Below, piece by piece: positions 129-17,337 of a stretch of 26,572 nucleotides of DNA (positions are counted from its first letter, which is position 1; every line of letters starts with the position of its first letter). The notes beneath the pieces were generated by a model. That model was not told where the DNA came from and searched no databases. It saw only the letters and a program-made list of their open reading frames with translations. The stretch spans positions 1 through 26,572 of the forward strand of contig CAVQGX010000024.1 in NCBI GenBank assembly GCA_963712115.1. Reading direction: 5' to 3'. This DNA comes from an uncultured delta proteobacterium. Its GTDB lineage: Bacteria > Desulfobacterota > Syntrophobacteria > BM002. A program made the translations under genes and the position numbers.

Positions 129-720
129 TTACCAATCTGACAACAATCCCATAAAACCTTTAGCAAGTTCGTCAATGGATCGCTCTGGGGCCTGCAAAAG
201 ACCCTGAACGGCAATACCTTGCACTGCGCCTATTAGAGCCGTTGCAGCCGCGCGCGAGTCAGTTATCTTCGGATGGTTCTGCAGCACGCGAGAAAAAGCC
301 TCGATGAAGTCCTGGTAAACCTCTTTTAGCCGCTTTTCCATGGGATGCTCTGCTGCCGGCAAATTCTGTAGCCAGGGCTGCCAGACAAATTGTCGCCTCT
401 GGTTGTCGGCGAAAATGCTCGCACATTATATCCACAACCCCCTGGGCCACCGCCAAAGAGCCTTTTTCTGCCCGGTTGAGGTGGTCTGAATATATCTCTA
501 TGCCCCGGGCCAACCAGTCCACCACCGCCTCCAACAAAGCTTCTTTGGATGGAAAGTGATGGAACACAGCACCTGAGGTCAGATTGATCGCCTGGGCTAT
601 GTCGGTGATCGTGGTCTTGTGGTAGCCTTGGCGGGCGAATAGTTCCGTTGCGGCCATGAGGATCTTTTTGTGGGTTGCTCGTGCTTGGGCTTCTTTCTTA
701 TTATAACGTTTTGCCGGCAT
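129..720 (-). pseudogene. TetR/AcrR-family regulator, split by a 1-nt frameshift near 351 (pseudogene or sequencing error)
   Basis: TetR HTH (ILMAATELFARQGYHKTTITDIAQAINLTSGAVFHHFPSKEALL) from ATG 720. The frame turns to junk after EFAGS, while ORF 129..362 holds a TetR-like helical C-terminus (EHPMEKRLKEVY...AAATALIGAVQG). Removing one base at ~351 joins them into ~196 aa. Confidence 0.8.
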
Positions 721-1037
721 GATCAATGCATAGCACCTAGTATGTAATATGTCTACTAAAAAAATAAGCCCGAAAGTTGAAACCCTCTTTGCCGTCTTCG
801 AGACCACTTCACTAATGGTCACATTCGCCAGTCTCTACTTTAATACACTATCGGACTTTTTTGACGGCAACCAAGATCTTGTGCTGTAGACTTCGTAGGC
901 AATACTTAACCTTGAGGTATGAGAATATACACTCTACTGCCGACACAGTGAGAGTTGCACTAAGTAATTATGTTATTAAATGCACTTCCGCGCTCCCTTT
1001 CACTAATCAGTGCAAGCCAAAATAGTGCTTTTTCTTA

Positions 1038-1786: not shown

Positions 1787-2656
1787 CTAATTTCCGAGCT
1801 TGGCACGCAAGGAGCCAATGATAGCCATATTAAGGTCCAGTTTGATATCTTTTTCCGGCAGCCCAAAAGCCATACCAATGAGCTGGGGTAGGTAGAGAAC
1901 CGAAATTCTCAAGTCTTCAACTTTGGCCTGTGACACCTGTTTCTGATAGCTGTCCAGGTTCATTTGGCACATTGGACACACTGTAGCAATACAGTCGGCA
2001 CCTTTTGCCGCCTTCAACAGTTCACCTGTTAGTTCAAGGGCGATTTCTTTCTTAGTCGTCATCAACCCGGCACCGCAGCATTTGGCACCCATGGTCCAAG
2101 GATGCACTTTTGCGCCAAGGGCCTCGATTAACGGCTCCATACAGCGAGGCTGTTCGGGGTCGTCATAGCCCCCGTAAGGACGCAAGGCCTGACAACCGTA
2201 ATATGGAGCGATGCGCAGGCCTGACAGTTCGCGGTTTACCTTAGCCTTGATCATTTCTGCACCAATATCGGTGGCAATTACATCCAGCAAATGGCGAGAT
2301 CTGATGCCTCCCTGGTAGCTAAGGCCTTCCACATTTAAAGCCTCATTGATCTTGTCAAGCAGCCCCTCCTCCCGTTTTATGTGTTCATCCACCTTTCTCA
2401 GATTCAGATAGCAGGCACTGCAAGGGATTACGAAATCGCAGCCCATATCCGTCTGTTGGGCCAAGGCCAGGTTGCGGGCGGGCAGCACCAACGAGAGCAG
2501 TTCACTGATTGTCTCTGCTGCGCTGGCACCGCAGCAGGTCCAGTCCTCTAGTTCTATCAATTCTATTCCCAGTGCTTGCATGACCGCTTGGGTAGAGATG
2601 TTATATTCGAGCGCTGTCCCCTCCAAAGAACATCCGGAGTAATAGAAGTACTTCAT
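1787..2656 (-). CDS. hdrB: Heterodisulfide reductase subunit B (two CCG domains)
   Basis: YYSGCSL...WTCCGA...PCSACY and YYGCQ...KCCGAG...VCPMCQ; overlaps the hdrC stop by 4 nt. Confidence 0.93.
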   Translation of the reverse strand: MKYFYYSGCSLEGTALEYNISTQAVMQALGIELIELEDWTCCGASAAETISELLSLVLPARNLALAQQTDMGCDFVIPCSACYLNLRKVDEHIKREEGLLDKINEALNVEGLSYQGGIRSRHLLDVIATDIGAEMIKAKVNRELSGLRIAPYYGCQALRPYGGYDDPEQPRCMEPLIEALGAKVHPWTMGAKCCGAGLMTTKKEIALELTGELLKAAKGADCIATVCPMCQMNLDSYQKQVSQAKVEDLRISVLYLPQLIGMAFGLPEKDIKLDLNMAIIGSLRAKLGN

Positions 2657-3219
2657 GAACTTGCCTCCAGTTCTTTTACTTTGCGAAAGATGGCGTCCAA
2701 CCTCCCTGGCCCAAAGAATTTCGGCATTTCAGGGGAGACTTTTCCTTTCATCATAAGCCTCATACCCAAAGGGGTGAAACTTAAGGGGAGCATGGGACTC
2801 TTCATGGTTATAAAGTACCTGGCCATAAGCTCCATCTCCCTCACCCGCCCATAGCGTCTAACCGTGTCAAGAAAGGTCTGATAGAAACGTGCTCCCTTTT
2901 TTTCTGCTAGCCCCTTGGCTACAGCCAATTGCTTCAAACCATGAATGGTCTCTGTCAAAGGCAGGCCCCGTGGACAGCGCAAGGTGCAGTAATAGCAGCT
3001 TGAACAAAGGGAAAAGGTCCTGCTGTTAAAGATTTCATCCACCAAACCAAGTTGGACCATTCGCCACATTTGCCTAGGGGTGAAATCCATGGCATAAGCG
3101 CTACCGCAGGATCCGGTGCAGGTGCCGCACTGCATACAGGGACGCATATTCTCCCTAATAGAGTTCATCGGGTCCACAGCAGTGTGTTCCTCGGCTAGTT
3201 CTAGTTTCTCTTCGCTCAT
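2653..3219 (-). CDS. hdrC: Heterodisulfide reductase subunit C (2x[4Fe-4S])
   Basis: CMQCGTCTGSC and CSSCYYCTLRCP motifs; start placed at ATG 3219 (MSEEK) behind AAGGAG. Confidence 0.9.
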   Translation of the reverse strand: MSEEKLELAEEHTAVDPMNSIRENMRPCMQCGTCTGSCGSAYAMDFTPRQMWRMVQLGLVDEIFNSRTFSLCSSCYYCTLRCPRGLPLTETIHGLKQLAVAKGLAEKKGARFYQTFLDTVRRYGRVREMELMARYFITMKSPMLPLSFTPLGMRLMMKGKVSPEMPKFFGPGRLDAIFRKVKELEASS

Positions 3220-3266
3220 GGGATACTTTCTCCTTCGTTCCGACTCACCGCCTTTCGAGCGGCTCA

Positions 3267-3347
3267 GATGCCGGATACTTGATACTGGATACCTCAAACT
3301 GCCTTTTTCCTTTATCTAGCATCGAGCATCTGGTATCGAGTATCGAT
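3267..3347. repeat. Heptamer-periodic inverted repeat between hdrA-REC and hdrC
   Basis: GATGCCG GATACTT GATACTG GATACCT (3267-3294) faces TAGCATC GAGCATC TGGTATC GAGTATC (3317-3344). Confidence 0.7.
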
Positions 3348-6300
3348 TTAAAAAATCTCTTCCAATGCTGCATCAATCACAGAGAAGATCTGTTGATCCC
3401 GGAAGCCACGCAGCACCGAGGCGCTGTTGGGACAAACGGCCGCACAGGAACCACAACCCTGGCAGGCGAGCTCGTCCACCAAGACCTTCTCCTCATCCTC
3501 GTCTCGCCATCTGGCACCGTAAGGACAGGCAGTAATGCATTTCTCACAGAGAGAACAGAGGCTGTGACGCACCTCTGCTACGGTACTACCCGCCATTAAT
3601 CTCTCACTGCCAAGTATCCTCAAAGCGCGCTGCGCAGCTGCCTCGCTCATAGCGATGGTCTCGGTGATGGAACGAGGTGAATGGGCTATGCCGCATGTGA
3701 AGACCCCCTCTTTGATAAAGTCCACCGGCCGCCACTTGGATTCCGCCTCCTGAAAGAAGCCGTCCTCGTCGGTCTCAACCCCGAATATCTGCGCCAGTTT
3801 CTCTTGACCATTTGGAACGATGCCTGTACTGAGCACTAAAAGGTCGGACTCTAGCACCACCTCGCGACCGAGGATCCGATCTCTAACTCCCACCGACACG
3901 CTACCATTTTCCACTTCCACCCGGGGCTTGTCGTTTACCTCGTATTGGATGAAGATTACTCCGGCTTGGCGTGCTCGAGTGTAGTAGGCCTCCAAAAAGC
4001 CATAAGCCATGATATCCCGGTAGAGGATGTAAACGTCGATCTCTGGATTCTGTTCTTTCAAATAGAGTGCGCTTTTCAAAGCTGAAGCGCAACAGATTCT
4101 GCTGCAGTAATTACGGGGTTCCTCTCGGGAGTCCACACATTGGATAAAGGTCACCACATTCAGGTCTGCAGGATTAAGCGACTCAAATTGGAGTTTTTCC
4201 TCTAGTTGATGCTGGGTGACGATGGCTTCACTCTGCCCGTACGCATAGGACTCGGTTGCGGCTTCCCTTCCGCCTGTGGCCAGAATTGTCACTCCATGTT
4301 CCAAGGCCTCACCAACGCCATCTTCCTTTTCAATGGTAGTGCGAAATCGGCCGACCCTTCCATGGGAATGCAGCACTTGCGCCTTCAGGTAGACCTGAAT
4401 GTTTGGATGTTTTTTTACATTGGCAATCGTTTGCATAATAAGTTCCTGGGGTGAATTCCCCTCAAGAGTCCGATACAATTCGAGGAGATTGCCCCCCAGA
4501 GTCTCTGCCTTCTCTACGACGAACACTTCAAAGCCGTGGTCGGCAATGGCCAGTGCAGCGCTCATGCCACCGATGCCGCCACCCACTACCAAAGCCTTCT
4601 GCATCACTGGAATTGCTTTAGGTGACGAAGGGTCCATGCCTTTCAGCTTGCCGACCCCCATGGAAAGAGTTGTCCGTATTTCCCGGCTCACCTGCTCGGG
4701 GTTAGCTTCCCGACCCGGTAAAGCTGGTGTGCTTATATCGACCACCTCCATTAGTGCAGAACTCAGTCCTGCTTTTTCGCCCAGCTCTCGCAGCTTTCTC
4801 GTATAAACGTAAGGCAGGCAGGCTCCAACTAAAAGGCGATTTGCCGAACTGCCTTCAAGTGCTTCCTCCAGCTGACTCCAGCCTTCCCGGGTGCAGACCC
4901 GCTCAATCCATTGCACTTTGCCAACCGAGTCCAAGTCCGAAACTGCTTTTTCGATCTCTTTTAGTTTTGCTACTTGGGCCAGGCTGTCGCCACAGCTGCA
5001 CAGTGCTATCATGACCTTTGGTACCTCGCGGGAAACGTCGCGATACAAGGGTTGCGGCTTGGCCGCCTCTGCCAGGCTACCCCCCTTGGAATGGATAAGG
5101 CCGGACGCCCTCAATGAGGCGGAGCTTGCCTGAATCACTGATTCAGAGATATCCCGAAGCCCAGAGAATGATCCCCCTACCAGCACGCCCTCCTGGCTGG
5201 TGAGGCTTAACGAAAAAGGCTGCAACTGGCAAAAACCCCATGAATTGAGTTCAACTCCGGTCATTTCAGCCAGCGCTTCACTACCTGCCGGCGGCCTCTG
5301 GCCGGCGGCAAGCACCACCAAGTCAAAAATCTCCTCATGGGCCATACCGTCTATGTCCGTATAGTCGATTCTGGGATCGCCACCGAGACCAGCCTGCTCA
5401 ACCGAGTGGACTCTACTCCTCTGAAACCTGACACCATATTCCTTTTCGGCTCTATCCTTATAACGCTGGAAGTTCTTACCGTAGGTTCTCATGTCCATAT
5501 AGAATATGGCCGTCTCTACCTGACCGTTGCTGCGTTCCTTTGCCAGTAGAGCTTCTTTAATTGAAAACATGCAACAGATGGAAGAACAGTAGTCAGCGTT
5601 AGTTTGTATATCCCGGGAGCCGACACACTGGAGCCAGGCCACTTTGCGGATCTCTTTGCCGTCGCTGGGCCGTAACAGTTTCCCCTGATTGGGCCCGGTA
5701 CCACTGACAATCCTCTCATACTCTACACTTGTAACTACGTTGGGAATCTCACCGTAGCCATAGGTATTGAACCCTGTTGTACCTGGATCGAAGGATCCAA
5801 AGCCGGCCGCCAGAATTACCGCCCCCACTTCCAGTTCACGTTCGTCGGCGCGCTCTAGGTTTTCGTAGAGCTTTACCACCAGAGGGACAAGAGTCTCGGG
5901 GTCGAAGGGCTTCATCAGGTACTCCAAGGCTCCAATTTTCATTGCCTCAACAGCGGTCTCCACCGTGGCGTAGGCGGTCATCATCACCACGGCGAGGTCC
6001 GGGCGCATTTCCTTAGCTCGTTTCAACACTTCTACCCCATCCATATCGGGCATCTTGATATCTAAAAGCATCAAGTGGTAGTTTTGCTTTGCGAGTTTTT
6101 CCAGAGCGTCGGGTCCCGATTCGGCTGCATCCACCTGAAAGCCATCTTCAGTCAACCAATCCTTGAGGGAATCGCGCACTATGAGTTCATCGTCCACTAC
6201 CAAGATACGGAACTGCTTGCGAGCCTCCCAGCGGAAATCGATGGCCCCAGTGGGACAAATCTTTTCACACTCGCCGCACAAAGTGCAGGAGTCCAGGTCG

Positions 6301-6779
6301 ACCACGTAGTTATTAGGAATGTTGTGCGGCACCGGCAGATAGACCGCCTTTCTCTTGGTCAACCCGGCATTGAACTGGTCAGGCACCTCCACTGGACAGA
6401 CGCGGGAGCATTCGCCGCAACCGATGCAGCGTTCTGGATCCACCATAGTAGGCTTCTGTCGTAGGGTGACCAGGTATTTCCCTGGCTCACCCTCCATGGT
6501 TACCAATTCAGTGGAAAGCATGATCTCGATGTTCTCGTGGAATAACCCCTTACGTAAACAGTACTGCGAGGAGGAGTCGCGTTCCACCAGAGGAAGCATC
6601 TTGCACATGCCACAGTGGTCGCTGGGAAACTGGTAGTCCAGTTGTGTGAGGGTGCCGCCCAGGTTCGGTGCCCGGTCGATTAATTTCACGTGATAGCCTA
6701 CCTCCGCCAAATCCAAAGCGGAGCGGATACCGCTGATTCCGGCACCCACAACCAAGGCTGACCCGATTTTTTTTCTCAT
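3348..6779 (-). CDS. hdrA: HdrA-like flavoprotein with two FAD domains and an inserted response-regulator receiver domain
   Basis: FAD motifs VVGAGISG and VVGGGIGG; HdrA cluster motifs CVGSR...YCSSICC and CVDSR...YCSRICC; ferredoxin motifs CIGCGECSRVCP, CTLCGECEKICP, CSLCEKCITACP, CQGCGSCAAVCP; REC at ~5862-6212. Start at ATG 6779 behind GAGG. Confidence 0.92.
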   Translation of the reverse strand: MRKKIGSALVVGAGISGIRSALDLAEVGYHVKLIDRAPNLGGTLTQLDYQFPSDHCGMCKMLPLVERDSSSQYCLRKGLFHENIEIMLSTELVTMEGEPGKYLVTLRQKPTMVDPERCIGCGECSRVCPVEVPDQFNAGLTKRKAVYLPVPHNIPNNYVVDLDSCTLCGECEKICPTGAIDFRWEARKQFRILVVDDELIVRDSLKDWLTEDGFQVDAAESGPDALEKLAKQNYHLMLLDIKMPDMDGVEVLKRAKEMRPDLAVVMMTAYATVETAVEAMKIGALEYLMKPFDPETLVPLVVKLYENLERADERELEVGAVILAAGFGSFDPGTTGFNTYGYGEIPNVVTSVEYERIVSGTGPNQGKLLRPSDGKEIRKVAWLQCVGSRDIQTNADYCSSICCMFSIKEALLAKERSNGQVETAIFYMDMRTYGKNFQRYKDRAEKEYGVRFQRSRVHSVEQAGLGGDPRIDYTDIDGMAHEEIFDLVVLAAGQRPPAGSEALAEMTGVELNSWGFCQLQPFSLSLTSQEGVLVGGSFSGLRDISESVIQASSASLRASGLIHSKGGSLAEAAKPQPLYRDVSREVPKVMIALCSCGDSLAQVAKLKEIEKAVSDLDSVGKVQWIERVCTREGWSQLEEALEGSSANRLLVGACLPYVYTRKLRELGEKAGLSSALMEVVDISTPALPGREANPEQVSREIRTTLSMGVGKLKGMDPSSPKAIPVMQKALVVGGGIGGMSAALAIADHGFEVFVVEKAETLGGNLLELYRTLEGNSPQELIMQTIANVKKHPNIQVYLKAQVLHSHGRVGRFRTTIEKEDGVGEALEHGVTILATGGREAATESYAYGQSEAIVTQHQLEEKLQFESLNPADLNVVTFIQCVDSREEPRNYCSRICCASALKSALYLKEQNPEIDVYILYRDIMAYGFLEAYYTRARQAGVIFIQYEVNDKPRVEVENGSVSVGVRDRILGREVVLESDLLVLSTGIVPNGQEKLAQIFGVETDEDGFFQEAESKWRPVDFIKEGVFTCGIAHSPRSITETIAMSEAAAQRALRILGSERLMAGSTVAEVRHSLCSLCEKCITACPYGARWRDEDEEKVLVDELACQGCGSCAAVCPNSASVLRGFRDQQIFSVIDAALEEIF

Positions 6780-6856
6780 GATCAGAAACCTCACTAAGTT
6801 TGCCCTGTTGATTTAGATAGATTGACAATAAGTCCGGTCGTCAACCTTTCGCGCCT

Positions 6857-6960
6857 GTCCGTTGGTTGTAATGAGTGGTCAACTGTTTTCCACTTTATTC
6901 GTTGCCCGCTGCCGGTTGCTCCATGCTTTTATTCCTGCAACGGACGACTGACCACGGACA
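6857..6960. repeat. Heptamer-periodic inverted repeat between the fdhB-like gene and hdrA-REC
   Basis: TTCGTTG CCCGCTG CCGGTTG (6898-6918) faces CAACGGA CGACTGA CCACGGA (6938-6958); a further GTCCGTTG lies at 6857. Confidence 0.55.
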
Positions 6961-6968
6961 TACAATGT

Positions 6969-8114
6969 TTAGTGCGATTTAGCCACAACCTCCTGGAATT
7001 CATCTTCCCGGAATATTGACAGTGGTGGTTCGTCATCCAGGCTGCGTCCGGCTTCATAATCAAAGGCCTTCTGCGTGTAGTGCGCCATGGTTCGAAAAAT
7101 CTCCATTACCGGTATATTATTGGGACAGGCATTGGAACACTGGCCGCAGCCGATACAAGCCGTGCTCATGTGAGCTATGCGGGTTAAATGAAAGAAGACC
7201 GTGTCTGTGGGCATCTTTAGGATGCCCTTGCGTTTTGCCCATCTCAGATATTGCGAAGGTTCGTGGTCGAAGACATCGGTGAGAAAAACGCACTCTTTGC
7301 AATAGCAAACAGGGCAAGCCACCCGGCAATTGTAACAATTGACACAGTTACCGAGATAACTCACAAGCTTCTCCACGTCTGATGTGGCCTCACTGGTCTC
7401 GGCAAACATCTGGTCACGATATGCCAGCCGTTCTGCCAGCAGTTTTTCGATCTCTTTCCGCCGTTTCTCCGGCTCACTGGTAGAAGATAGTCCCAGGTTG
7501 TCCAATAAATCCTCTCCTTTAGGTGTATTGGCCTTCGCCAGCAGATGATCTTTGAAGTCTACACCCACTAAGCCAATGAGCACATCTGCGTTTTCCGGTA
7601 TGGGATACTCACAGGCCTTGCATGCAGGAGAAACTTCAAAGCCATCGCAAGCCGTTCCCTTGCCTTCTTGGATATTGCGGTAAAACCTTAAGGTGGCCTC
7701 CATGCCATTATCACCGGCAAAACCAGGATATTGGACATTGCTGTATGCGCCCAGACAATCCACCCCGATAAGGACGACGTCGTCGACTCTGCCTTGCTTC
7801 AATTTCACCAGCTCAATGAAGGCCCGGATCTCGCAGGGGCGGAGCACCACTGCCACCTTCCCCCCTAGAGGCTTTCTGGTAAGCTTTGAAACCACTTTGG
7901 CTACGTTAAGGGGAAAGACGGGTGCTAGTGGATCGGCAGCATCCAGCTTGTCCGGGTCCGTGACTAAAGTGGGCATTACTGCGTTTTTCGTGGGCAGGTG
8001 TTGGGCCACCATGAGGCTGTTGATTTCTCCGTCGCGAAGCATTGTCTTGAAAAATTCTTGTAGAGAACTGACCAGATTCTGATCCTTTATTGGTATCTTT
8101 ACTGTGGTTGCCAT
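6969..8114 (-). CDS. FdhB/FrhB-like protein (F420 dehydrogenase beta-subunit family) with C-terminal 2x[4Fe-4S]
   Basis: VVLRPCEIRAFIELVK...LIGVDCLG and PACKACEYP as in methanogen FdhB; CVNCYNCRVACPVCYCKEC and CIGCGQCSNACP. Confidence 0.8.
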   Translation of the reverse strand: MATTVKIPIKDQNLVSSLQEFFKTMLRDGEINSLMVAQHLPTKNAVMPTLVTDPDKLDAADPLAPVFPLNVAKVVSKLTRKPLGGKVAVVLRPCEIRAFIELVKLKQGRVDDVVLIGVDCLGAYSNVQYPGFAGDNGMEATLRFYRNIQEGKGTACDGFEVSPACKACEYPIPENADVLIGLVGVDFKDHLLAKANTPKGEDLLDNLGLSSTSEPEKRRKEIEKLLAERLAYRDQMFAETSEATSDVEKLVSYLGNCVNCYNCRVACPVCYCKECVFLTDVFDHEPSQYLRWAKRKGILKMPTDTVFFHLTRIAHMSTACIGCGQCSNACPNNIPVMEIFRTMAHYTQKAFDYEAGRSLDDEPPLSIFREDEFQEVVAKSH

Positions 8115-8153
8115 CGATTCCCTCCAGATTATCTACTTGGGGCACAGAGATCT

Positions 8154-8576
8154 TTAAATGACCATCTGCTTCCGCACTTCATTGGGGCCTAACCCCTTGA
8201 CCTCAACCACCAACTCTTTCATGGTGTTGGCAAAGTCAATTCCCTCACTAGCTCCAATCCAGGTGAGCTTAAGTCTCCGCTGGTCAAAGCCGAAACGTGG
8301 TAGAATTTCTTTTAGCAATTTGACCCGCCGGCGAGCCTTGAGGTTGCCGTTGATGTAGTGGCAGTCGCCGGGATGGCAGCCACTGATAAGCACTGCATCT
8401 GCCCCTTCCAACAAGGCCTTGATTACATACTTGGGATCCACCATCCCGGTGCACATCATTCTGATCATCCGCACGTTGGGAGGCTGGGTTAACCTTGAGG
8501 TCCCTGCCAAATCCGCAGCGGTGTAGGTGCACCAGTTGCAAACGAAAGCGATTATTGTCGGCTCGAAGTCTGACAT
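8154..8576 (-). CDS. mvhD: MvhD/FlpD [2Fe-2S] adaptor subunit
   Basis: FVCNWCTY, MMCTGMVDP, GCHPGDCHY and WIGASEG motifs; GGAGG RBS. Confidence 0.95.
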   Translation of the reverse strand: MSDFEPTIIAFVCNWCTYTAADLAGTSRLTQPPNVRMIRMMCTGMVDPKYVIKALLEGADAVLISGCHPGDCHYINGNLKARRRVKLLKEILPRFGFDQRRLKLTWIGASEGIDFANTMKELVVEVKGLGPNEVRKQMVI

Positions 8577-8702
8577 GGTTTTCCTCCACCAAGAAGTGTC
8601 TGAGATGAACTAAAGTAAGCAAAAATGTATATAATTGGGTGAATAACCTTACCTAACTTTATCTTGTATTCCGAGTTCTCCCTTCGCAGATTCGCATTTC
8701 AC

Positions 8703-11700
8703 CTAGCCAACTAAGTCGTCCAGGATTCCCTCGATCTCGGCGAAGATCTGCCTGCCGGTAAAATGGTTTATCCGTGCCGCCCCGCTGGGGCAGTGGCCGG
8801 CGCAACTCCCACAGCCCTTACATACTGCCTCGTTGATCACCGAAACGTTTCTGCGAGGATCGAACTCGATGGCCGAATAGGGACAGAGATCGATGCAGGC
8901 CTGACAACCGGCACACAAATCAGGATCAATCCAGGAGATGATGGAAGGAATTTCTACCTTCCCCCTGGTAGCCAGAGCCAGCGCTTGACCCGCAGCCCCA
9001 GCCGCATGGGAAACGGCGTCCGGAATGTCTTTGGGCCCCTGACAGGTCCCTGCAAGGAAAACCCCGTCAGTGGCGGTGGTGACCGGACCCAATTTGGGGT
9101 GCTCTTCCAGGAAGAACCCATCTCCTCCCTGGTTGATTCCAAACACCCGAGCCACCTCGGCCGCATCTTTGGTGGGCTCCATGGCCGTACAAAGAACTAC
9201 CATGTCCACTGGCACTCGTAGCTTTTTACCTATCAAGGTGTCTTCACTGACGATTATAAGTTTGCCCTTCTCCTCAGATCCTATGGCCTGGTCGGTGATC
9301 TCGGCAGGTTTTCCTCTTATGAAGGTAATCCCCTCTTCTTGCAGCCTACGGTAAAATTCCTCGTAACCTTTGCCGAAACAGCGCATGTCGATGTAGAAAT
9401 TGTAGACTTGCGTGTCATGCCCAGCCTTTTCCTTGATGAGATGGCCGTATTTGAGGGCATACATGCAGCAGACCCGCGAGCAGTATTCGTGGTAATTCAC
9501 ATCACGACTTCCCACGCAGTGGATGATGCCAACGCTGGCCGGCGACTTGCCATTCTTCATTACTATTTTGCCACCCGTGGGTCCCACAGCATTGTTCAGC
9601 CGCTCAAACTCCAGGCCGGTGTAGACCTCTGCGAACCGTCCATAACCGTACTGCTTGATTGGAGTGGGGTCTAGAGTCTGGAAGCCGGTAGCCATAATTA
9701 TGCTGCCCACCTTGACCTCAACTTCCTCCTCCACCATATTATGCTCGACAGCATTTCTCTCACAGGCTCGGACACATTCCATACACTCGCAACAGATACC
9801 GCAATTGATGCAGCGATTCGCCTCTCTTCTTGCCTCTTCTTCCTCGAACCCCAGGGCCACCTCGTCAAAATGAGATCTGCTCTCCTGGGGATCTCTGTGG
9901 GGCAGGTTGGCTCTTGCCTCCACCAGAAAATCTTCAGGGACTTCCCTCCATTCCTGCCCCGGTGGTTCCCTGGCTTCGACCTCCTCGGCATAAAGGGCTA
10001 GATCCTCCCCATTGATGTAGCGATGGATGGCTTCCACTGCTTTATGGCCAGAGGCCACAGCCTCAATAACCGTTGCCGGTCCACTCACAGAATCACCAGC
10101 ACTAAACACACCAGGGATGGCCGTCTGCATGGTGTGGGGATCTACCACCAAGGTGTTGCGCCTGGTGATCTCGAGGTCGCCCTCATTCACTGCCCAGTCC
10201 ACATCAGGCTGCTGGCCTATTGCTGGGATGACCGCATCGCACTCAATGACGAATTCAGAGCCCTCTACCGGGACCGGCCTCCGTCTACCGCTTTCATCTG
10301 GAGGTCCCAGTTCAGTGCGAATACACTCAAAGCCGCTTACCTTGCCGTTGGTGCCCACAATGCCGAGAGGAGCGGTAAGGTAATGGATCTCAACCCCTTC
10401 GGACAAGGCCCCCTCGATCTCTTCCGGATATGCCGGCATCTCTTCTCGGCTTCGTCGATAGACGATGCTCACTTGCTCACACCCCAAGCGTACTGCTGCC
10501 CGAGCAGCATCAATAGCAACATTACCACCACCGATAACTACTATCCTTTTGCCCGGCCTTGCACGGTCGCCCAGGTTGACTTCCCTGAGAAAATCAACCG
10601 CATCAATTACACCCTCGAAATCCTCCTCACCACTAATGCCCATTTTCAAGCTCCGGTGGGCGCCAATACCGAGGAAAACAGCCTTGTAACCTTCCGTCCT
10701 CAAATCTTCCAAAGTGAAATCAAATCCAAGTCTTTTGCCGGTCTGCGTTTCAATTCCCAGCCGCAATATGTTATTGATTTCCCGGTCTAGGATTTCTGGA
10801 GGAAGCCGGTAATCCGGTATACCCACGCGAAGCATGCCACCCAGCACTGGCAGGGCCTCAAAGATGGTAATCTGGTATCCCTTCAGTCGGAGATAGTAGG
10901 CCACTGCGAGCCCGGCTGGCCCGGATCCTACCACCGCAACCTTTTCAGGCCGCTCCTCGATCTCGGGCTTTGGTAGCTCTTCCAGATCCACCTGATCAGC
11001 TGCAAATCGTTTTAGATCCCTGATGGCCACCGCTTCATCCACTTCTGCCCGGCGACATTGAAATTCACATGGGTGGGGACATACTCGCCCCAACACCCCT
11101 GGCAAGGGTAGCCGTTCCATGATCAGCTGAATAGCTTCCTTGTATTTTCCTTGGCCAATAAGCTGGACATAACCCTGAACATTAATCGCTGCCGGGCAGG
11201 TAATGGTGCAAGGCGCCCGATCCTTTTTCTCAATGCAATAAGTAATGGGCACTGCCTGAGGGAAAAAGCGGAAAATAGCCTTGCGTTCACTTAGATGCTC
11301 ATCGAACTCACTGGGCACCGAAACCGGACACACTTCAGTGCATTGGCCGCAGCCCGTACATTGGTCCTCTCGGACATAGCGAGCTTTCCGCTTGATCTTG
11401 ACAGTGTAGTTGCCCACATAGCCATTCACCTCCGCCACTTCGCTGTAGGAAAAGAGGTGGATGTTGGGCTCCTGGGCCACAGCTACCGTTTTGGGCGTAG
11501 AAATACAGGCGGCGCAGTCCAGCGTGGGAAAGGTCTTGTCAAACTTCATCATGTGACCACCAATGGAGGGATTCCTCTCCACCAGGTAGACTTGGTGGCC
11601 TGATTTGGCGATGTCCAGCGCTGACTGGATTCCGGCAATGCCTGCACCAACCACCATTACATCAGGGTGGACACCCACCTCCCGGGTGGCCAGTCTCTGA

Positions 11701-12089
11701 TGTTGACTCACTCGGCTCACCGCCGCCGCCACTAGAGTTTTCGCCTTGCTGGTGGCCTCAGCCTTATCTTCGATTACCCAAGAACAGTGTTCACGAATAC
11801 AAGCCATCTGAAAAAGATAAGGGTTTATATCTGCTCGCTGGCAGGCTCCCTGGAAGGTCTTTTCATGGAGTCTGGGAGAGCAAGAGGCCACCACCACGCG
11901 GTTCAGACCCTGTTCATGAATGTCCTTTTGGATCATCTCTTGGCCAGGATCTGAACACATGAACTTGTAGTCCCGGGCAACCACAACATCTCTCAACCCC
12001 TTGGCAAACTCCGCCACCTCCTCGGGGTCAACCTTGCCAGCAATGTTGGTTCCACAATGACAAATGAACACGCCAATTTTCGCTGTCAT
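8703..12089 (-). CDS. hdrA: HdrA with inserted GltD/NfnB-like FAD/NAD(P)H module (HdrL-type)
   Basis: HdrA N-terminus GVFICHCGTNIA, CSPRLHE, REHCSWV, GAGIAG, DKTFPTLDC, CVGSR...YCSRVCCMYALK. The insert has CTITCP...CPHPCEFQC, GSGPAG, GGGNVAIDAAR and VYRRS. Confidence 0.93.
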   Translation of the reverse strand: MTAKIGVFICHCGTNIAGKVDPEEVAEFAKGLRDVVVARDYKFMCSDPGQEMIQKDIHEQGLNRVVVASCSPRLHEKTFQGACQRADINPYLFQMACIREHCSWVIEDKAEATSKAKTLVAAAVSRVSQHQRLATREVGVHPDVMVVGAGIAGIQSALDIAKSGHQVYLVERNPSIGGHMMKFDKTFPTLDCAACISTPKTVAVAQEPNIHLFSYSEVAEVNGYVGNYTVKIKRKARYVREDQCTGCGQCTEVCPVSVPSEFDEHLSERKAIFRFFPQAVPITYCIEKKDRAPCTITCPAAINVQGYVQLIGQGKYKEAIQLIMERLPLPGVLGRVCPHPCEFQCRRAEVDEAVAIRDLKRFAADQVDLEELPKPEIEERPEKVAVVGSGPAGLAVAYYLRLKGYQITIFEALPVLGGMLRVGIPDYRLPPEILDREINNILRLGIETQTGKRLGFDFTLEDLRTEGYKAVFLGIGAHRSLKMGISGEEDFEGVIDAVDFLREVNLGDRARPGKRIVVIGGGNVAIDAARAAVRLGCEQVSIVYRRSREEMPAYPEEIEGALSEGVEIHYLTAPLGIVGTNGKVSGFECIRTELGPPDESGRRRPVPVEGSEFVIECDAVIPAIGQQPDVDWAVNEGDLEITRRNTLVVDPHTMQTAIPGVFSAGDSVSGPATVIEAVASGHKAVEAIHRYINGEDLALYAEEVEAREPPGQEWREVPEDFLVEARANLPHRDPQESRSHFDEVALGFEEEEARREANRCINCGICCECMECVRACERNAVEHNMVEEEVEVKVGSIIMATGFQTLDPTPIKQYGYGRFAEVYTGLEFERLNNAVGPTGGKIVMKNGKSPASVGIIHCVGSRDVNYHEYCSRVCCMYALKYGHLIKEKAGHDTQVYNFYIDMRCFGKGYEEFYRRLQEEGITFIRGKPAEITDQAIGSEEKGKLIIVSEDTLIGKKLRVPVDMVVLCTAMEPTKDAAEVARVFGINQGGDGFFLEEHPKLGPVTTATDGVFLAGTCQGPKDIPDAVSHAAGAAGQALALATRGKVEIPSIISWIDPDLCAGCQACIDLCPYSAIEFDPRRNVSVINEAVCKGCGSCAGHCPSGAARINHFTGRQIFAEIEGILDDLVG

Positions 12090-12131
12090 GGTCTAACCTC
12101 ACTTGAAACAAGTTGATTCGACTAATCGCTC

Positions 12132-12530
12132 CTAACAGCCGACACACTTTTCAAGAATCTGGAGGAGCTCCTCGGTCTCTGGAGGCTTCTCTATATATGC
12201 GGTCGGCTCTGGAACCTTTTGTCCCCTATAGGTATTCAGTACTTGTTGGGAATGGAAAAAGGTCTTTTTGGCTATGGCCGACAGCATAATCACCGGAATA
12301 TCCTTGAGCTCCTCGTCAGTTTTTAGTTCTCGATACATTTGAATCCCGCCCTCTCGGGGCATCATCACATCTAGGATGATTGCCGCCGGCTTTTTCTCCC
12401 TGGCTTTCAGAATGCCCTCTTCTCCGTTGACGGCGATAATCGGTTTATAGCCACTGGTCTCCAGCAGAGTGGTGATGAAGGTGCGCATGTCCAGCTCATC
12501 ATCCACCACCAAGATCCTCTTTTTCTTCAT
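12132..12530 (-). CDS. Single-domain response regulator
   Basis: ILVVDDE, IILDVMMP, IMLSA, YIEKP; no output domain. Confidence 0.92.
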   Translation of the reverse strand: MKKKRILVVDDELDMRTFITTLLETSGYKPIIAVNGEEGILKAREKKPAAIILDVMMPREGGIQMYRELKTDEELKDIPVIMLSAIAKKTFFHSQQVLNTYRGQKVPEPTAYIEKPPETEELLQILEKCVGC

Positions 12531-12644
12531 GATATTCTCCTTCTAACTGGAATCATTTCTTTCTTATTTAATAGCTTGGCCTTGTGACCGTACTCTGCTA
12601 ATCAGCATCACCTGCCAACCTGACCAAGACTGTTCTCTGCCGAC

Positions 12645-13127
12645 TCATCCGGGGAGCTTGAAGGCATGCTCTGGGTTGCGGATGGCCATTACGTGGCAGT
12701 GCGCCCGCCTTGCTACATTCTCAACCGTGCTGCCAAAGGTCTGCTTATCCAACTCAGAGCTGCCGGAAGCACCCATAACAATGAAATCCACCTTGTGCTC
12801 TCTGGCGTAACGAACAATCTCCACAAAGGGAACCCCGACTCGAACTGCGAAGACAGCCTGATTGCACTTTTCCAGCCTGCTTCCATATTTGGACTTAAGG
12901 TCTTCCGCTGCTTGATTCATAAGCTCATCGTCTGCTACCTGTTCCTCCTTATTCGGGTCGACATACTCGTCCACCACGTGCCGCATGTACTTGTATCCCG
13001 AGTGCAGCACATGAAGCAGATGAAGCTTAGCGTTATATCGCTGGCAGAAGTCTACGGCATGATGGAATGCCATCTCCGCCTCCTCAGAAAAATCACTGCA
13101 ATACAGAATGTTCTTATAATCAATCAT
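12645..13127 (-). CDS. Universal stress protein (UspA family)
   Basis: KNILYCSDFSE; IVMGASG...FGSTVENVARRAHCHV nucleotide-binding-type motif. Confidence 0.92.
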   Translation of the reverse strand: MIDYKNILYCSDFSEEAEMAFHHAVDFCQRYNAKLHLLHVLHSGYKYMRHVVDEYVDPNKEEQVADDELMNQAAEDLKSKYGSRLEKCNQAVFAVRVGVPFVEIVRYAREHKVDFIVMGASGSSELDKQTFGSTVENVARRAHCHVMAIRNPEHAFKLPG

Positions 13128-14752
13128 GACTTCCTCCTGTCTGCTTGGGCCACGACCGAGTGCGATTCTTGCTTCTCATTTTCCCCTCCCTCATATTCAT
13201 AAAGGTCTTCCTTATCCTTGCTGGGTCCCGAGGGCAGCAATAGACGAAATAGTGAGCCCCTGCCAGGCTCAGATTCAACCTCTATGCGCCCTTGATGTTC
13301 ACGGGTAATTTTCTGGACGTTCATCAAGCCCAAACCGGTTCCATCGGCTCCCTTGGTGCTGAAGAAATTGGTGAAGATCTTTTCCTTATTGTTCTCCTCA
13401 ATTCCGCAACCGTTATCTTCCACCTCGAAACAGACTGCCCAGTCCGGGTGGCGGCGAGTGCGCACCCTAACCTGCCCCTGTTCATGGCCGCAGATTTCTG
13501 GCCAGCAGGCGTCAATGGCATTATTGATCAGGTTGACCAAACATTGATGAATACCGCTCACATCCATTGCTACCGGTTCCAACCCCTCTGTGGCTTCCAA
13601 GGTCAGATTAACCTTGAACTCCTCTGCCCGCGTTTTCAAGAGCTCCACAACCTCTGCAGCCACCTTATTGGCTTCTGCCAAGCGGTATTCAGGTTTCCGT
13701 TCCTTGGCGTAGGTGAGCAGGTCCATGGCCAGGCTGGAGATCTTGCCAACATTGCGCTGGACCATGTCCCAGCCATTCTGGAGATAGTCCTGGTTTGATA
13801 GCTCGAAGCCCTTATTGACCACAAACATCCCGCCTTTCAGACCACCCACTATATTTTTTATGGCATGGGCAATAGTCGTCGAGGTCTGGCCGATGGCAGC
13901 CAGCCGCTCTGATTGCACCAGCCGCTTTTCCAAACGACGAATTTCGCGCAAGTCTTGAAAGAAGGTGACACAGCCCACCTTTTGGCCTTCTTGTCGTAGG
14001 ATTGTGTGAGTTAACCGAATTGGAATTCTTTTTCCTTCCCGAGACCGGATGGTTGTATCCAGATGACTACTACCCTCCTCACTTGTGGGGTCTCCCTCTT
14101 CTCTCTCCCGGCTGAGCCAACGATCAACTATCTCCTTGTCATAGAGGTCTTCTAAGGTGAGCCGACCCACCACCTCATCCTCCCCATACCCAGTCAGCCG
14201 CTGGGCGCTGTCGTTGAAAATAACAACCTTTCTCTCTTCATCTCCAGCCACAATGCCATCCAAGGAATTGTCGATGAGGTTGGCTTGAAAGTCGCTGATT
14301 CGCTGGATTTCAGCAGTAGCCTCCTGGACCTTTAGTTCTAGGTTCTCCGTGTAATCACGAAGCTGCCTCTTCAGAGAGATTTTTTCCTCGGCCCGTTTTA
14401 GAGAAATGAACAGGGCCTCGTCATGGATCGGCTTGGTAATAAAATCAGACGCCTCCAACTGTAGGGCGCTGATGGCCAGTTCCATCTCGCCGTGGCCGGT
14501 GATGATTATCACTTCGGAATCGGTCTTCATTTCCTTTATGCGCCGAAGCACTCCAATACCGTCCATCCCCGGCATCTTGATATCAGTAAGAACAAGCGGT
14601 GGTTGCTCCCGTTCGAAAATTTCCAACCCCTGCTCGCCGCTCTCGGCAGTCCAAACCACATAGCCGGCATCCTTAAGGGCAATCGACATGACCTTTCTGA
14701 TGCCCTCTTCGTCGTCGATAAGGAGGACGCGCTTTAAATTGGCTTCAGCCAC
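13124..14752 (-). CDS. Hybrid cytoplasmic histidine kinase (REC-PAS-HisKA-HATPase)
   Basis: REC LLIDDE...LTDIKMP...ITGH...TKP; H-box AHAIKN; N-box NLINNAIDA; DNGCG, FFSTK, GTGLGL. Start reassigned to GTG 14752 behind GGAGG, overlapping the upstream stop. Confidence 0.9.
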   Translation of the reverse strand: MAEANLKRVLLIDDEEGIRKVMSIALKDAGYVVWTAESGEQGLEIFEREQPPLVLTDIKMPGMDGIGVLRRIKEMKTDSEVIIITGHGEMELAISALQLEASDFITKPIHDEALFISLKRAEEKISLKRQLRDYTENLELKVQEATAEIQRISDFQANLIDNSLDGIVAGDEERKVVIFNDSAQRLTGYGEDEVVGRLTLEDLYDKEIVDRWLSREREEGDPTSEEGSSHLDTTIRSREGKRIPIRLTHTILRQEGQKVGCVTFFQDLREIRRLEKRLVQSERLAAIGQTSTTIAHAIKNIVGGLKGGMFVVNKGFELSNQDYLQNGWDMVQRNVGKISSLAMDLLTYAKERKPEYRLAEANKVAAEVVELLKTRAEEFKVNLTLEATEGLEPVAMDVSGIHQCLVNLINNAIDACWPEICGHEQGQVRVRTRRHPDWAVCFEVEDNGCGIEENNKEKIFTNFFSTKGADGTGLGLMNVQKITREHQGRIEVESEPGRGSLFRLLLPSGPSKDKEDLYEYEGGENEKQESHSVVAQADRRKS

Positions 14753-17078
14753 CGACCACCTCCATCGGCTCCCGGGTTTCCTTTGCCGCCGCTGGAAAAC
14801 TGATGATAAATGTGGTCCCTCGACCCTCAACACTTTGCACTTCTATGATGCCGTCATAGTCCCGTACTATGCCAAAGCTTATTGAGAGGCCTAGCCCGGT
14901 TCCCTTCCCCACCGGTTTGGTGGTAAAGAAAGGTTCAAATATCTTCTCCTTCACTGCTTCGCTCATGCCAGGTCCGGTATCGGTTACGTTCACCACCACC
15001 TGGTCGCCTGCAGTTTTTGAGGAGATCCTCAGTACTTTTTCAACATCCTGTCCTGCTCGCTCCTCCTTCTCATCCATAGCGTCACGGGCGTTCATGATGA
15101 GGTTGAGAAACACTTGCTCCAACCGGTTCCGATCACCTTTGATGGATGGCAACTCTTTGTCCAAGTCCAACTCTACCTTGATGCCATGCAACTCCAACTG
15201 CCGGCCCAGAACCGTGAAAGTCCCGGAAATACAATCATTGAGTTGCACATTTACTTTGCGAATATCTGTTTTCCGGCCAAATTGGCGCAGGTGATTTATG
15301 ATGAGGGAGGCACGGTCCACCTGACTGTCCATTTCGTCTGCTAACTCCCGAAGAATATTAGGAGACACTGGCTCGTTTCGATCTATCTTCTTGGTGAGAA
15401 AACTGGCGGAGGTCTTTATCACTGAAAGGGGCTGATTTAACTCATGAGCAACACCGGCCGACATCTCGCCCAAGGTGGCCATTTTGCTTGCCTGAATTAG
15501 TTGCTCTTCGGTCTTAACCCGCTCGGTCACATCAGAGGTGGTAACAATCACGGTATCCTGGCCAATGTCTTTAAGGCTGGAGTAACGTATGTTCACCATT
15601 ATAGATTCAGCTTTTTTAGTGTGCTGTCTCACCTTGTAGACTGCCCCTTCTCTCTCCCACGGAACTTTCCCGAGGCGATCCCATTCTTGGGGTTCAGCTA
15701 GCTCCAGAAAGCTCTTCCCGAGGATTTCGTTTCTTTCGAAACCATAGGAATTTAGGGCTCGTTCGTTTGCGTCCTTAATCTCCAAAGTTTCCGGGTTTAG
15801 AACAAAAATGGGGTTGGGATCACTGTTAAACAGGGTCCGGTACTTTTCTTCAGATCTCTTCAGCTCCTGTTCCAGCAGACGCACCTGGGTGATATCGGTT
15901 GCCATCTCCATGGCAGCCACTACACTACCCTCCTCGTCAAAAATGGGGGAGGTAAAAGCAAGAACATAGGCGAGGGTGCCATCTTTGCGTAGCACAACCT
16001 CCTCGCTGTAATGGGGCTGGCCATCCTGGAAGGTCCTTTCAACTGGGCAGACGGGGCATTTCTCTTCCCTGCCCTTGTAAGCCCGGTAACAGTATTCCCC
16101 TTGGCAGTCGCCAAAGCGCTCCTCGAAGACTCTGTTTACCTGGGTGATGCGAAAGTCCCGGTTCTGGACGCTGATCTGACAGGGAACCTCTGTAAAGAGG
16201 GTCTGGTATTCCTCCTTGCTTTTCTGGTAGGCGTAGGCCTGGTCTCTGATGTTTTTCCGCATCTCGTCGAAGGAATGGGAGAGATCGCCGATCTCATCTT
16301 GAGTAATGGCCTTCACCTCCTGCTCGTAGTCACCTCTGGCGAGTTGCTTGGTAGCTGAAACCAGACGGCGAATGGGTCGGTTAACGAAATAGACGATGCA
16401 GCCGGCCACAATAGCGGTGACCCCCAGAAAGATGAGGCTGGCAAAAAAGATGATCTTTTGCTTGGTGGCAAGGATTTCTTGATCCAGAGGTTCCAAAGAA
16501 AGACCAATATCCAGAACGCCAAGGACTGTCTTTTCCTTTGGGTGGTAGTGACATGTTGCCTGCCAGCAACTGGTCTCATTATATATGGGATTGATCATCC
16601 CCAGGACTCGATTTCCTGCCGAGCTTCGATAGATTCGGGTGCGGTCGCTCATGCTCAGCCGTTCCAGGGGCTGGTCCCGCCGGTGGCAAACATAACACGC
16701 CTCTGCCTGTAGATCTACATTAGTACCGATATCCTCTTTTGTATTGGCAAACATGATCTCGCCGGTCTTGTTGAATACCCGGATCTTCTCCACCCCCGGC
16801 TGGGCGCCGATGGCCTCAATAATCTTGTGCAAACTCTCCCGCTGGTTCTTGAGCATGCTGTAGTGGGTGCCGCGCTTCACCGTGTCGCTAAACTGGCTGA
16901 CACTCATGACCATTCGCTCAAACGCCTGTTTTTCCTGGAGCGATACCAGATAAAAAGTGAGGGCAAGCACCGCAACCAGGAAAATCAGACCCACCGCCAG
17001 ACCTAATTTAAAACTGAGGCTTCGTCTCAACCTTCTAAGAAGGTGTAGACCTGAGTTCTCTTTGGCTGACTCACTCAT
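14745..17078 (-). CDS. Membrane sensor histidine kinase (2 TM, extracytoplasmic CxxCH domain, HAMP, 2 PAS, HisKA, HATPase)
   Basis: Two hydrophobic segments flank CYVCH and CWQATCH; HAMP PIRRLV...DEIGDL; H-box AHELNQPL; NLIMNARDA, DTGPG, FEPFFTTK, GTGLGL. ATG 17078 behind GGAG is preferred. Confidence 0.92.
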   Translation of the reverse strand: MSESAKENSGLHLLRRLRRSLSFKLGLAVGLIFLVAVLALTFYLVSLQEKQAFERMVMSVSQFSDTVKRGTHYSMLKNQRESLHKIIEAIGAQPGVEKIRVFNKTGEIMFANTKEDIGTNVDLQAEACYVCHRRDQPLERLSMSDRTRIYRSSAGNRVLGMINPIYNETSCWQATCHYHPKEKTVLGVLDIGLSLEPLDQEILATKQKIIFFASLIFLGVTAIVAGCIVYFVNRPIRRLVSATKQLARGDYEQEVKAITQDEIGDLSHSFDEMRKNIRDQAYAYQKSKEEYQTLFTEVPCQISVQNRDFRITQVNRVFEERFGDCQGEYCYRAYKGREEKCPVCPVERTFQDGQPHYSEEVVLRKDGTLAYVLAFTSPIFDEEGSVVAAMEMATDITQVRLLEQELKRSEEKYRTLFNSDPNPIFVLNPETLEIKDANERALNSYGFERNEILGKSFLELAEPQEWDRLGKVPWEREGAVYKVRQHTKKAESIMVNIRYSSLKDIGQDTVIVTTSDVTERVKTEEQLIQASKMATLGEMSAGVAHELNQPLSVIKTSASFLTKKIDRNEPVSPNILRELADEMDSQVDRASLIINHLRQFGRKTDIRKVNVQLNDCISGTFTVLGRQLELHGIKVELDLDKELPSIKGDRNRLEQVFLNLIMNARDAMDEKEERAGQDVEKVLRISSKTAGDQVVVNVTDTGPGMSEAVKEKIFEPFFTTKPVGKGTGLGLSISFGIVRDYDGIIEVQSVEGRGTTFIISFPAAAKETREPMEVVGG

Positions 17079-17114
17079 CCGAAACACTCCAATGGGTTTG
17101 TGTCTAGATCATTA

Positions 17115-17130
17115 TGCTAGGGTCATGCCA
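17115..17130 (-). promoter_or_regulatory. sigma54 (-24/-12) promoter of the kinase-hdr operon
   Basis: Minus strand TGGCATGACCCTAGCA = GG-N10-GC, 37 bp upstream of the kinase ATG and next to a sigma54 activator gene. Confidence 0.75.
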
Positions 17131-17215: not shown

Positions 17216-17337
17216 TTGTTGCTTCAGTTGTGCAACAATATTTGGAGGGTTTTCCTATAAATATTCGTAATATATTGGTTTTTTACATGGATGGCCAATC
17301 TGCAACATGTTGCAACGTTAGTTGCAAAATATGCAAC
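17216..17337. promoter_or_regulatory. Putative upstream activator sequences (GTTGC...GCAAC palindromes)
   Basis: TTGTTGC-N9-GCAACAA (17216-17238), TGCAACATGTTGCA (17301-17314), GTTGC-N7-GCAAC (17321-17337). Confidence 0.6.

Follow-up and report, generated by a model that had tools for sequence, protein, structure and literature searches.

The window analyzed here is the entire 26.6-kb contig G000:C24 (26,572 nt) of an uncultured delta proteobacterium. The list of open reading frames (ORFs), together with Pfam and NCBIfam scans of the window proteins, revealed ten co-directional genes on the minus strand that form one run. It starts with genes for a membrane sensor histidine kinase (HK1), a second kinase (HK2), a universal stress protein (USP) and a small response regulator (RR), and it continues with the genes of an HdrABC/HdrL cluster, namely hdrL with an NAD(P)H module, mvhD, an fdhB-like gene, hdrA, hdrC and hdrB (Table 1). 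The main subject of this study is the product of hdrA, which contains a receiver domain (REC) and is designated HdrA::REC in the following. An earlier note on this DNA, made from the sequence alone, had described the gene run from HK1 to hdrB, and this description was confirmed.

Table 1. Genes and sites of the receiver-bearing Hdr locus, in window coordinates
Feature	Position	Strand	Characteristics and evidence
Sigma54 enhancer-binding protein	17347..19092	-	PAS-PAS-AAA+-HTH_8, GAFTGA; PF00158 (Sigma54_activat) 233.4 bits, PAS_9 x2, HTH_8 55.1 bits
(G)TTGCA(AC) repeat cluster	17217..17336	-	read from sequence; 90-220 nt further upstream of the -24/-12 element
Sigma54-type -24/-12 element TGGCAT-N5-TAGCA	17115..17130	-	~40 nt before the likely start codon of HK1 (ATG, 17075)
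HK1, membrane sensor kinase, 780 aa	14745..17087	-	transmembrane segment, extracytoplasmic sensor, HAMP, 2 PAS, HisKA, HATPase_c (Pfam)
HK2, REC-PAS-kinase, 569 aa	13124..14833	-	Response_reg aa 36-142, PAS, H-box, HATPase_c (Pfam)
USP, universal stress protein	12645..13127	-	Pfam Usp 98.4 bits
RR, single-domain response regulator, 132 aa	12132..12530	-	receiver alone (Pfam); D-D-D-S-K intact in window
HdrL, 1128 aa, HdrA-type flavoprotein with GltD-like NAD(P)H insert	8703..12089	-	NCBIfam
MvhD-type [2Fe-2S] adaptor	8154..8576	-	Pfam FlpD 173.5 bits
FrhB/FdhB-like iron-sulfur protein	6969..8114	-	Pfam FrhB_FdhB_C and Fer4 families
HdrA::REC, tandem (fused-dimer) HdrA with inserted receiver, ORF 1148 aa	3348..6794	-	Pfam, NCBIfam, structure alignment
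Receiver domain within HdrA (aa 197-303)	5886..6206	-	Pfam Response_reg
HdrC-like protein	2653..3297	-	NCBIfam and Pfam
HdrB-like protein, two CCG domains	1787..2656	-	Pfam CCG, 2 stretches; TIGR03288 181.8 bits, below its cut-off

Several genes of the run overlap. HK2 most probably starts at a GTG (14752) that is preceded by GGAGG, so that its ribosome-binding site lies inside the HK1 gene and the two genes share 8 nt at the HK1 stop codon. Overlaps of 4 nt were found for HK2/USP and for hdrC/hdrB, and the overlap of HK1, HK2 and USP proposed in the earlier note was thus borne out. The likely start codon of HdrA::REC is the ATG at 6779, which yields a protein of 1143 aa, and that of HdrC is Met27 (3219), which yields 188 aa and matches the lengths in the nearest relatives (L020, L030).

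A whole-genome search found three receiver matches on the contig, in HK2, in the RR and in HdrA. No receiver was detected with Pfam in the remaining scanned ORFs of the window, nor in the adjacent sigma54 activator, in full agreement with what had been noted before. Chance is not an issue for these assignments because the domain scores far exceed the curated cut-offs. The RR scored 80.8 bits with the DVU0259-family model NF045717, below the cut-off of 160, and is not assigned to that family. In HdrL, the HdrA2 model matched aa 4-296, the HdrA model aa 766-1124 and GltD-type models aa ~285-797 (NCBIfam). Its GltD-like module is thus placed after the inserted ferredoxin domain, at the site equivalent to that of the receiver in HdrA.

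The enzyme block as such is already described. The same gene set of HdrL, MvhD, an FdhB-like iron-sulfur protein, HdrA, HdrC and HdrB is present in Syntrophobacter fumaroxidans (Sfum_0819-0824; PMC5947623) and at locus VIII (hdrL/hdrA4) of Desulfobacterium autotrophicum HRM2 (PMC2702500), with orthology judged from gene order and annotation. In S. fumaroxidans, the complex is abundant with sulfate (PMC5947623). The available parts of both accounts treat it purely as an enzyme and mention neither a receiver nor kinases (PMC5947623, PMC2702500); Sfum_0821 carries the annotation 'receiver modulated'. The literature search, which included the available part of PMC10553843 and whose coverage fell short of two key reviews, found no text on an HdrA receiver or its kinases. 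The receiver-bearing system combines two known kinds, response regulators with enzyme outputs and HdrABC/HdrL complexes.

Anatomy of the receiver-bearing HdrA

The receiver of HdrA was recognized by the Response_reg model (PF00072) with 108.3 bits, compared with a cut-off of 30.2, and the match covers positions 1-107 of the 111 model positions. It has the complete set of catalytic residues, D201, D202, the putative acceptor D245, T273 and K295. This D-D-D-T-K set is kept in 33 of the 37 HdrA receivers of the family, and the four exceptions (L029, L058, L059, L060), which have lost the acidic pair and more, are Desulfovibrionia-type members. The best matches of the domain were AtoC in NCBIfam (1.6e-29) and NtrC1-type domains in the PDB (1zy2, 4l4u, 1ny5).

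HdrA::REC aligned to the solved HdrA chains 9sfi_A and 8rvu_a in four stretches. Query residues 12-187 correspond to HdrA 145-310, which comprises the start of the flavin domain and the inserted two-cluster ferredoxin domain, and residues 315-464 correspond to HdrA 313-459, the remainder of the flavin domain. The other two stretches are 592-823 (HdrA 4-236) and 962-1144 (HdrA 465-650). All elements of the HdrA-type flavoprotein fold are therefore represented, namely the flavin domain, the ferredoxin domain inserted into it and the domains at the N- and C-terminus, and the four-piece alignment identifies the protein as a fused pair of HdrA-like units. Methanogen HdrABC-MvhAGD and related HdrA proteins (PDB 9sfi, 8rvu, 5odc, 7bkb) share the thioredoxin-reductase-like flavin domain, the inserted two-cluster ferredoxin domain, the N-terminal domain and the C-terminal ferredoxin domain. 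In contrast to them, two units are fused here, and unit 1 lacks both the N-terminal domain and the C-terminal ferredoxin domain and bears the receiver. The equivalog cut-offs for CoB-CoM HdrA were not reached with NF040770 (704.5 versus 1100), NF041778 (545.6 versus 1400) and NF041891 (531.4 versus 1300). By these scores, HdrA::REC is HdrA-like and not the methanogen enzyme.

The receiver (196-308) is located where the inserted ferredoxin domain rejoins the flavin domain, between residues ~310 and ~313 of 9sfi_A. The same genome encodes receiver-less paralogues; on contig C26, a single frame of 1012 aa matches query residues 8-193 and then 319-1147, with no gap in the DNA. Because the paralogues align gap-free on both flanks, the receiver is a clean insertion, placed where the inserted ferredoxin domain of HdrA ends.

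Known proteins resemble parts of this architecture. BamE, of the class II benzoyl-CoA reductase of Geobacter metallireducens, is a fused HdrA dimer and is described, like HdrA::REC, as a single polypeptide that combines two thioredoxin-reductase-like units with one inserted ferredoxin domain; the comparison is one of descriptions (preprint 10.64898/2026.04.10.717634). In BamE, the low-potential output is provided by the inserted ferredoxin domain, which is called "analogous to HdrA's Fd domain", and no receiver is reported (10.64898/2026.04.10.717634). The receiver itself is closest to sigma54-activator receivers of the NtrC/AtoC/NtrC1 type, which gave its best matches in NCBIfam and the PDB and form the sister clade of the HdrA receivers. 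In contrast to the NtrC type, the output of HdrA::REC is not an AAA+ ATPase, and the neighboring sigma54 activator bears PAS domains in place of a receiver. Enzymatic outputs are well known for other response regulators, e.g., CheB, PleD/WspR and RpfG. They share with HdrA::REC the fusion of a receiver to an enzyme and the dedicated kinases, but their receiver is terminal and the enzyme forms or degrades a signal molecule or modifies a receptor, whereas the receiver of HdrA::REC is inserted into a redox flavoprotein of energy metabolism.

Receiver-bearing HdrA proteins are not confined to this genome. Among the homologues listed, at least 120 (64-99% identity, 1056-1163 aa), PF00072 was present in all. 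In a library clustered at 50% identity, the whole 321-aa junction was matched in one stretch by 14 of the best 150 representatives, and the others among these 150 were receiver-less, consisted of a receiver only or were fragments. Of 400 other genomes that sampled the phylum evenly, 10 had the junction (E<=1e-50), and these came from at least seven families. The named records are metagenome-assembled genomes (MAGs) of Syntrophobacterales, Desulfobacteraceae, Desulfosarcinaceae, Desulfococcaceae and others, and divergent copies occur in Desulfovibrionia-type MAGs. Three proteins of ~1100-1200 aa (P0133, P0141, P0161) matched the junction piecewise and have the receiver elsewhere, roughly at residues 305-433 or 467-582; in these proteins, the fusion of a receiver with Hdr may be an independent one.

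Kinases in the neighborhood of hdrA::REC

The neighborhoods of hdrA::REC were mapped by phmmer with the window's own domains as queries. The survey comprised 38 non-redundant loci, after L021, L025 and L026 had been left out because they lie on the same contigs as L033, L034 and L047. An intact receiver was found at 34 loci including the window, and 26 with at least 4 kb downstream or at least 5 kb upstream were informative. The genes hdrL-mvhD-frhB-like-hdrA::REC-hdrC-hdrB occur in the same order, and the FrhB/FdhB-like gene is conserved, wherever the contig permits a statement. The commonest layout is [PAS activator]-RR-hdrL-...-hdrB-HK1-(REC-kinase), from which the window differs in having the kinases, USP and RR upstream. 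Five loci (L035, L037, L040, L043, L052) lack hdrC/hdrB after hdrA::REC and have, upstream of hdrL, a gene for a 607-774-aa protein with two HdrC-like ferredoxin regions instead, so that the disulfide-reductase module differs at these loci.

Two types of REC-kinases were distinguished, c2, the type of the kinase core of HK2, and c1, a third kinase type. Among the informative loci, which are relatives and thus do not yield independent events, an HK1-type kinase was found in 23/26, a c2-type REC-kinase in 18/26, a c1-type REC-kinase in 9/26, any kinase in 25/26, a small RR in 16/26 and the PAS activator in 11/26. Every locus with c2 also has HK1, so that the pair is present in 18 of the 26 loci, and matches to HK1 and/or c2 just outside four of the loci (G294, G344, G206, G390) raise this number to 22. 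The remaining four do not yield a countable pair: the flank of L028 stops within an HK1-like ORF, L039 has the HK1 type only, L041 stops in a c2-type receiver, and L042 has another kinase and a protein with a receiver between two USP domains. An HK1-type core was found in none of 45 receiver-less Hdr loci that the same scan had yielded and that served as control, and 16 of these have some kinase. The earlier note had asked whether genomes with hdrA::REC keep both kinases and had regarded their usual absence as a reason to abandon its proposal; most informative loci do keep them.

The receiver was intact wherever these kinases were present, and D-D-D-T-K was retained in 33 of the 33 members that keep them. 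At the four loci with decayed receivers, HK1, c1 and c2 were all absent (0/4), and instead a divergent pair of an HK-REC and a REC-activator was found in 3/4 and tandem USP genes in 4/4. A dedicated link from the kinases to the enzyme is likely.

Two other roles of the receiver have to be weighed against these observations. It might be a structural or dimerization module or a phosphate sink, while the kinases act via the RR, the USP or transcription. The four Desulfovibrionia-type members keep the domain despite their decayed catalytic residues, which indicates that the fold alone is of some use, and the nearest solved receivers are of the NtrC1 type, which act through dimer changes. Receiver-less Hdr clusters, furthermore, likewise carry kinase pairs and small RRs. 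However, the strict retention of the catalytic residues together with the kinases, their joint loss in the other four members and the lower conservation of the RR as an acceptor (see below) are at odds with these roles, which we regard as rather unlikely. Alternatively, the receiver might take its phosphoryl group mainly from a small molecule, e.g., acetyl phosphate, and report the acetyl-CoA or energy state, with the kinases being chiefly phosphatases or acting on other targets. Receivers are generally able to autophosphorylate from acetyl phosphate, and the hosts are acetate- and propionate-oxidizing types, but neither the tight linkage to HK1 and c2 nor the joint loss of kinases and catalytic residues would be explained, and we consider this explanation improbable.

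Kinase cassettes were also seen in another context. Receiver-less clusters of a giant HdrL (about 1480-1500 aa) with MvhD in other Desulfobacterota (L075, L090, L092, also L068, L069, L091) carry a pair of their own, in which a kinase of ~660-770 aa is combined with a REC-kinase of ~500 aa, often along with an RR of 126 aa. They represent a second type of Hdr cluster with a two-kinase cassette.

Transcription of the operon

A sigma54-type -24/-12 element precedes HK1, and a cluster of repeats is located between this element and the activator gene (Table 1). The repeats, which include the perfect palindrome TGCAAC-N4-GTTGCA at 17311-17326, are candidate binding sites of the activator. The latter has the two hallmarks of a sigma54 enhancer-binding protein, an AAA+ interaction domain with GAFTGA and a DNA-binding helix-turn-helix (HTH) domain. 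Of the 15 related loci that have an RR before hdrL, 12 also show a sigma54-like site upstream of the RR, compared with about 0.63 expected by chance from the rate across these loci; a site was accepted when GG and GC were kept, no more than two mismatches occurred and the RR ORF followed within 400 nt. The sigma54 pattern was not enriched across the window (130 matches versus 126.5 in shuffled sequences), and the assignment of the site at 17115-17130 is therefore based on its position and on the sites of the relatives. The gap between USP and RR contains no canonical sigma54 site, the nearest candidate having a GG-N8-GC spacing, and scans of the window for sigma70 promoters and terminators gave results not above those of shuffles. 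The conserved promoter motif, taken together with the PAS activator that recurs at these loci, makes sigma54-dependent transcription the best reading for this operon. The view of the earlier note that the operon is devoid of a DNA-binding regulator therefore has to be corrected, as the PAS-sigma54 activator and the -24/-12 promoter are parts of the conserved module; it holds only for the phospho-pathway.

Transcript data were available as Logan metatranscriptome contigs of relatives, in which uncovered stretches are uninformative and the starts and ends of transcripts cannot be read. Contigs from 95-99% identical relatives span the junctions RR-hdrL (11285-12624) and HK2-USP (13083-13781). This is compatible with co-transcription, but it is no proof.

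Three further findings concern the surroundings of the operon. A gene for a TetR-family regulator (259-822, minus strand) is located downstream of hdrB, and its position is kept in L020 and L030, the two closest relatives. On the plus strand, positions 22289-24322 encode an amino-acid permease of 677 aa that is fused to TrkA-N and TrkA-C (RCK) domains. At 24341-26533, a DHH-family phosphoesterase gene on the minus strand adjoins a gene for a fusion of a PK_C-like domain with a c-di-AMP cyclase (DAC), and the two may form a pair for c-di-AMP turnover.

Possible wiring of the kinases and proposed control of the enzyme

The extracytoplasmic domain of HK1 (aa 30-235; window 16383-17000, minus strand) does not belong to a Pfam family. 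It contains CxxCH and Cx4CH-x-H motifs that were kept in 21 of 21 aligned sequences, including those of Anaeromyxobacter kinases. The motifs fit a covalent heme c or a metal site and suggest that HK1 may sense a redox signal in the periplasm. The domain was tried as a marker of the system and was rejected; it occurs in 118 of 401 genomes of the phylum and in 6 of the 10 other HdrA::REC genomes.

For HK2, the alignment of the DHp domains and the trees, which for both receivers and kinases were obtained by quick searches, gave the kinase core as c2 type and the receiver as c1 type. The kinase cores form the clades HK1 (SH-aLRT 99), c2 (98, including the HK2 of the window) and c1. The receivers fall into three classes. 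The first comprises the HdrA receivers, the USP-REC-USP copy of L042 and the receiver of one REC-kinase of L061, and it is the sister of the sigma54-activator receivers. The second consists of the REC-kinase receivers, with c1 nested within c2 and the receiver of the window HK2 in the c1 sub-clade (SH-aLRT 99), and the third contains the small RRs (SH-aLRT 98).

The small RR is less conserved as an acceptor. Its Asp at the acceptor position is replaced by Asn, Ala or Glu at 6 of 16 loci (L028, L041, L044, L049, L057, L059), all of which still keep kinases or HdrA::REC. In these six lineages, the RR is not phosphorylatable in the usual way, and HdrA is the sole conserved local acceptor for the second kinase.

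The earlier note had proposed a self-contained operon with a cascade from HK1 to the receiver of HK2, to the histidine of HK2 and to the receiver of HdrA, an interpretation that is supported in part. The constancy of HK1 and c2 and the loss of the Asp in the RRs are in favor of this order, and the kinases do co-localize with the enzyme genes. The transfer from Asp to His, in contrast, had to be given up. No Hpt family was matched by Pfam among 11 proteins and the receiver of HK2 is N-terminal, which argues against a multi-step His-Asp-His-Asp phosphorelay and for a kinase cascade, in which the step from HK1 to HK2 would regulate the autokinase of HK2 and would not hand a phosphoryl group to its histidine.

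The evidence on the wiring is mixed, as co-occurrence favors the order HK1, HK2 and HdrA, while the trees of kinases and receivers favor the c1 type. Alternatively, a c1-type REC-PAS kinase, which in this genome would be the one on contig G000:C22, could phosphorylate the HdrA receiver. HK1 and HK2 would then mainly serve the RR or each other, and the operon would not be self-contained. The c1 cores form a clade (SH-aLRT 95) with kinases located beside HdrA-type or sister-type receivers, and all 7 of 7 such partners fall into the same clade of 17 rows. A c1 kinase is present at some of the informative loci, as counted above, and orthologues (53-61% identity) were found in 4 of 5 complete-ish HdrA::REC genomes; that of this genome is 57% identical. 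However, G206, which is 99% complete and has HdrA::REC with an intact receiver, HK1 and c2, yielded no c1 match at E<=1e-90. The c1 kinase is also far less constant beside hdrA::REC (9/26) than HK1 (23/26) and c2 (18/26), and kinship of kinase cores is no proof of a shared specificity. The C22 kinase (G000:C22:29131-30558; L113 8123-9595, minus strand) is an orphan REC-PAS-HisKA protein, and its receiver lacks the first ~32 model positions. All in all, phosphorylation by a c1-type kinase appears unlikely, although less so than the two other explanations considered above.

Three additional findings were made on kinases of these types. The C22 kinase gene is flanked by a MauE/DoxX gene and a GNAT acetyltransferase gene and is next to an RND efflux operon. 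The USP-REC-USP protein of L042 (14884-16203, minus strand; 439 aa) has a receiver that is closest to the HdrA receiver of the same locus, and its gene lies beside that of a PAS-rich kinase with a c1-type core. A second cassette in the genome of the window (G000:C18:28059-31480; L114 6059-9480), in which a REC-PAS kinase of 499 aa comes after an HK1-like kinase of 641 aa, is located directly after genes for three Mrp/Nuo-type antiporter subunits, with two more PAS kinases encoded on the opposite strand.

Of the explanations considered, the most likely one is that the locus is a sigma54-dependent operon for an HdrABC/HdrL-type complex in which HdrA is a response regulator with a dedicated, travelling kinase cassette, acting in the order HK1, HK2 and HdrA; we give it about an even chance of being correct. 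The enzyme would be an NAD(P)H-linked complex for flavin-based electron bifurcation or confurcation. HK1, with its Cys/His-rich, heme-c-like outer domain and PAS domains, would phosphorylate the N-terminal receiver of HK2 and thereby set the kinase activity of HK2. Asp245 of HdrA would then be phosphorylated by HK2, or by HK1 directly. The phosphorylated receiver would shift the position or the pairing of the ferredoxin arm, i.e., the low-potential arm, and in this way gate the electron flow. The domains, the site of insertion, the conserved residues, the co-localization and the promoter motif are observed, and each phosphotransfer step and the effect on the enzyme are inferred. The small RR would be an accessory branch, and the PAS-sigma54 activator would set transcription separately. 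A more specific proposal is a His-Asp cascade that starts at a periplasmic redox sensor of the heme-like kind and, within seconds and independently of the sigma54 control, switches the low-potential branch of HdrA on or off or diverts it. It is more tentative, and we would sooner expect it to fail than to hold.

Several of the observations weigh against this order of phosphorylation and against a closed operon. All 7 of 7 kinases beside HdrA-type or sister-type receivers, which neighbor sigma54 activators or a USP-REC-USP protein, cluster with c1 and not with HK1 or c2 (SH-aLRT 91-95), and the c1 orthologue is encoded on another contig, so that the operon may not be self-contained. The sensor domain of HK1 is common in the phylum, and the loci of the survey are related to each other. 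A REC-kinase was present at 10 of the 45 receiver-less Hdr loci, and because such clusters sometimes carry kinase pairs, a kinase encoded close to hdr genes does not necessarily have HdrA as its target. Lastly, the RNA contigs are no proof that the genes share one transcript, and DNA may be present among them.

Electron-bifurcating complexes of the Hdr type determine how sulfate reducers and syntrophs manage their energy. A receiver in the bifurcating subunit that is retained along with kinases of its own in several families provides a concrete, testable route to post-translational control of the direction and activity of such complexes. A cultured organism, S. fumaroxidans, shows an HdrA::REC-type protein in its proteomes. 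If the proposed link is true, a central redox enzyme would join the list of response-regulator outputs.

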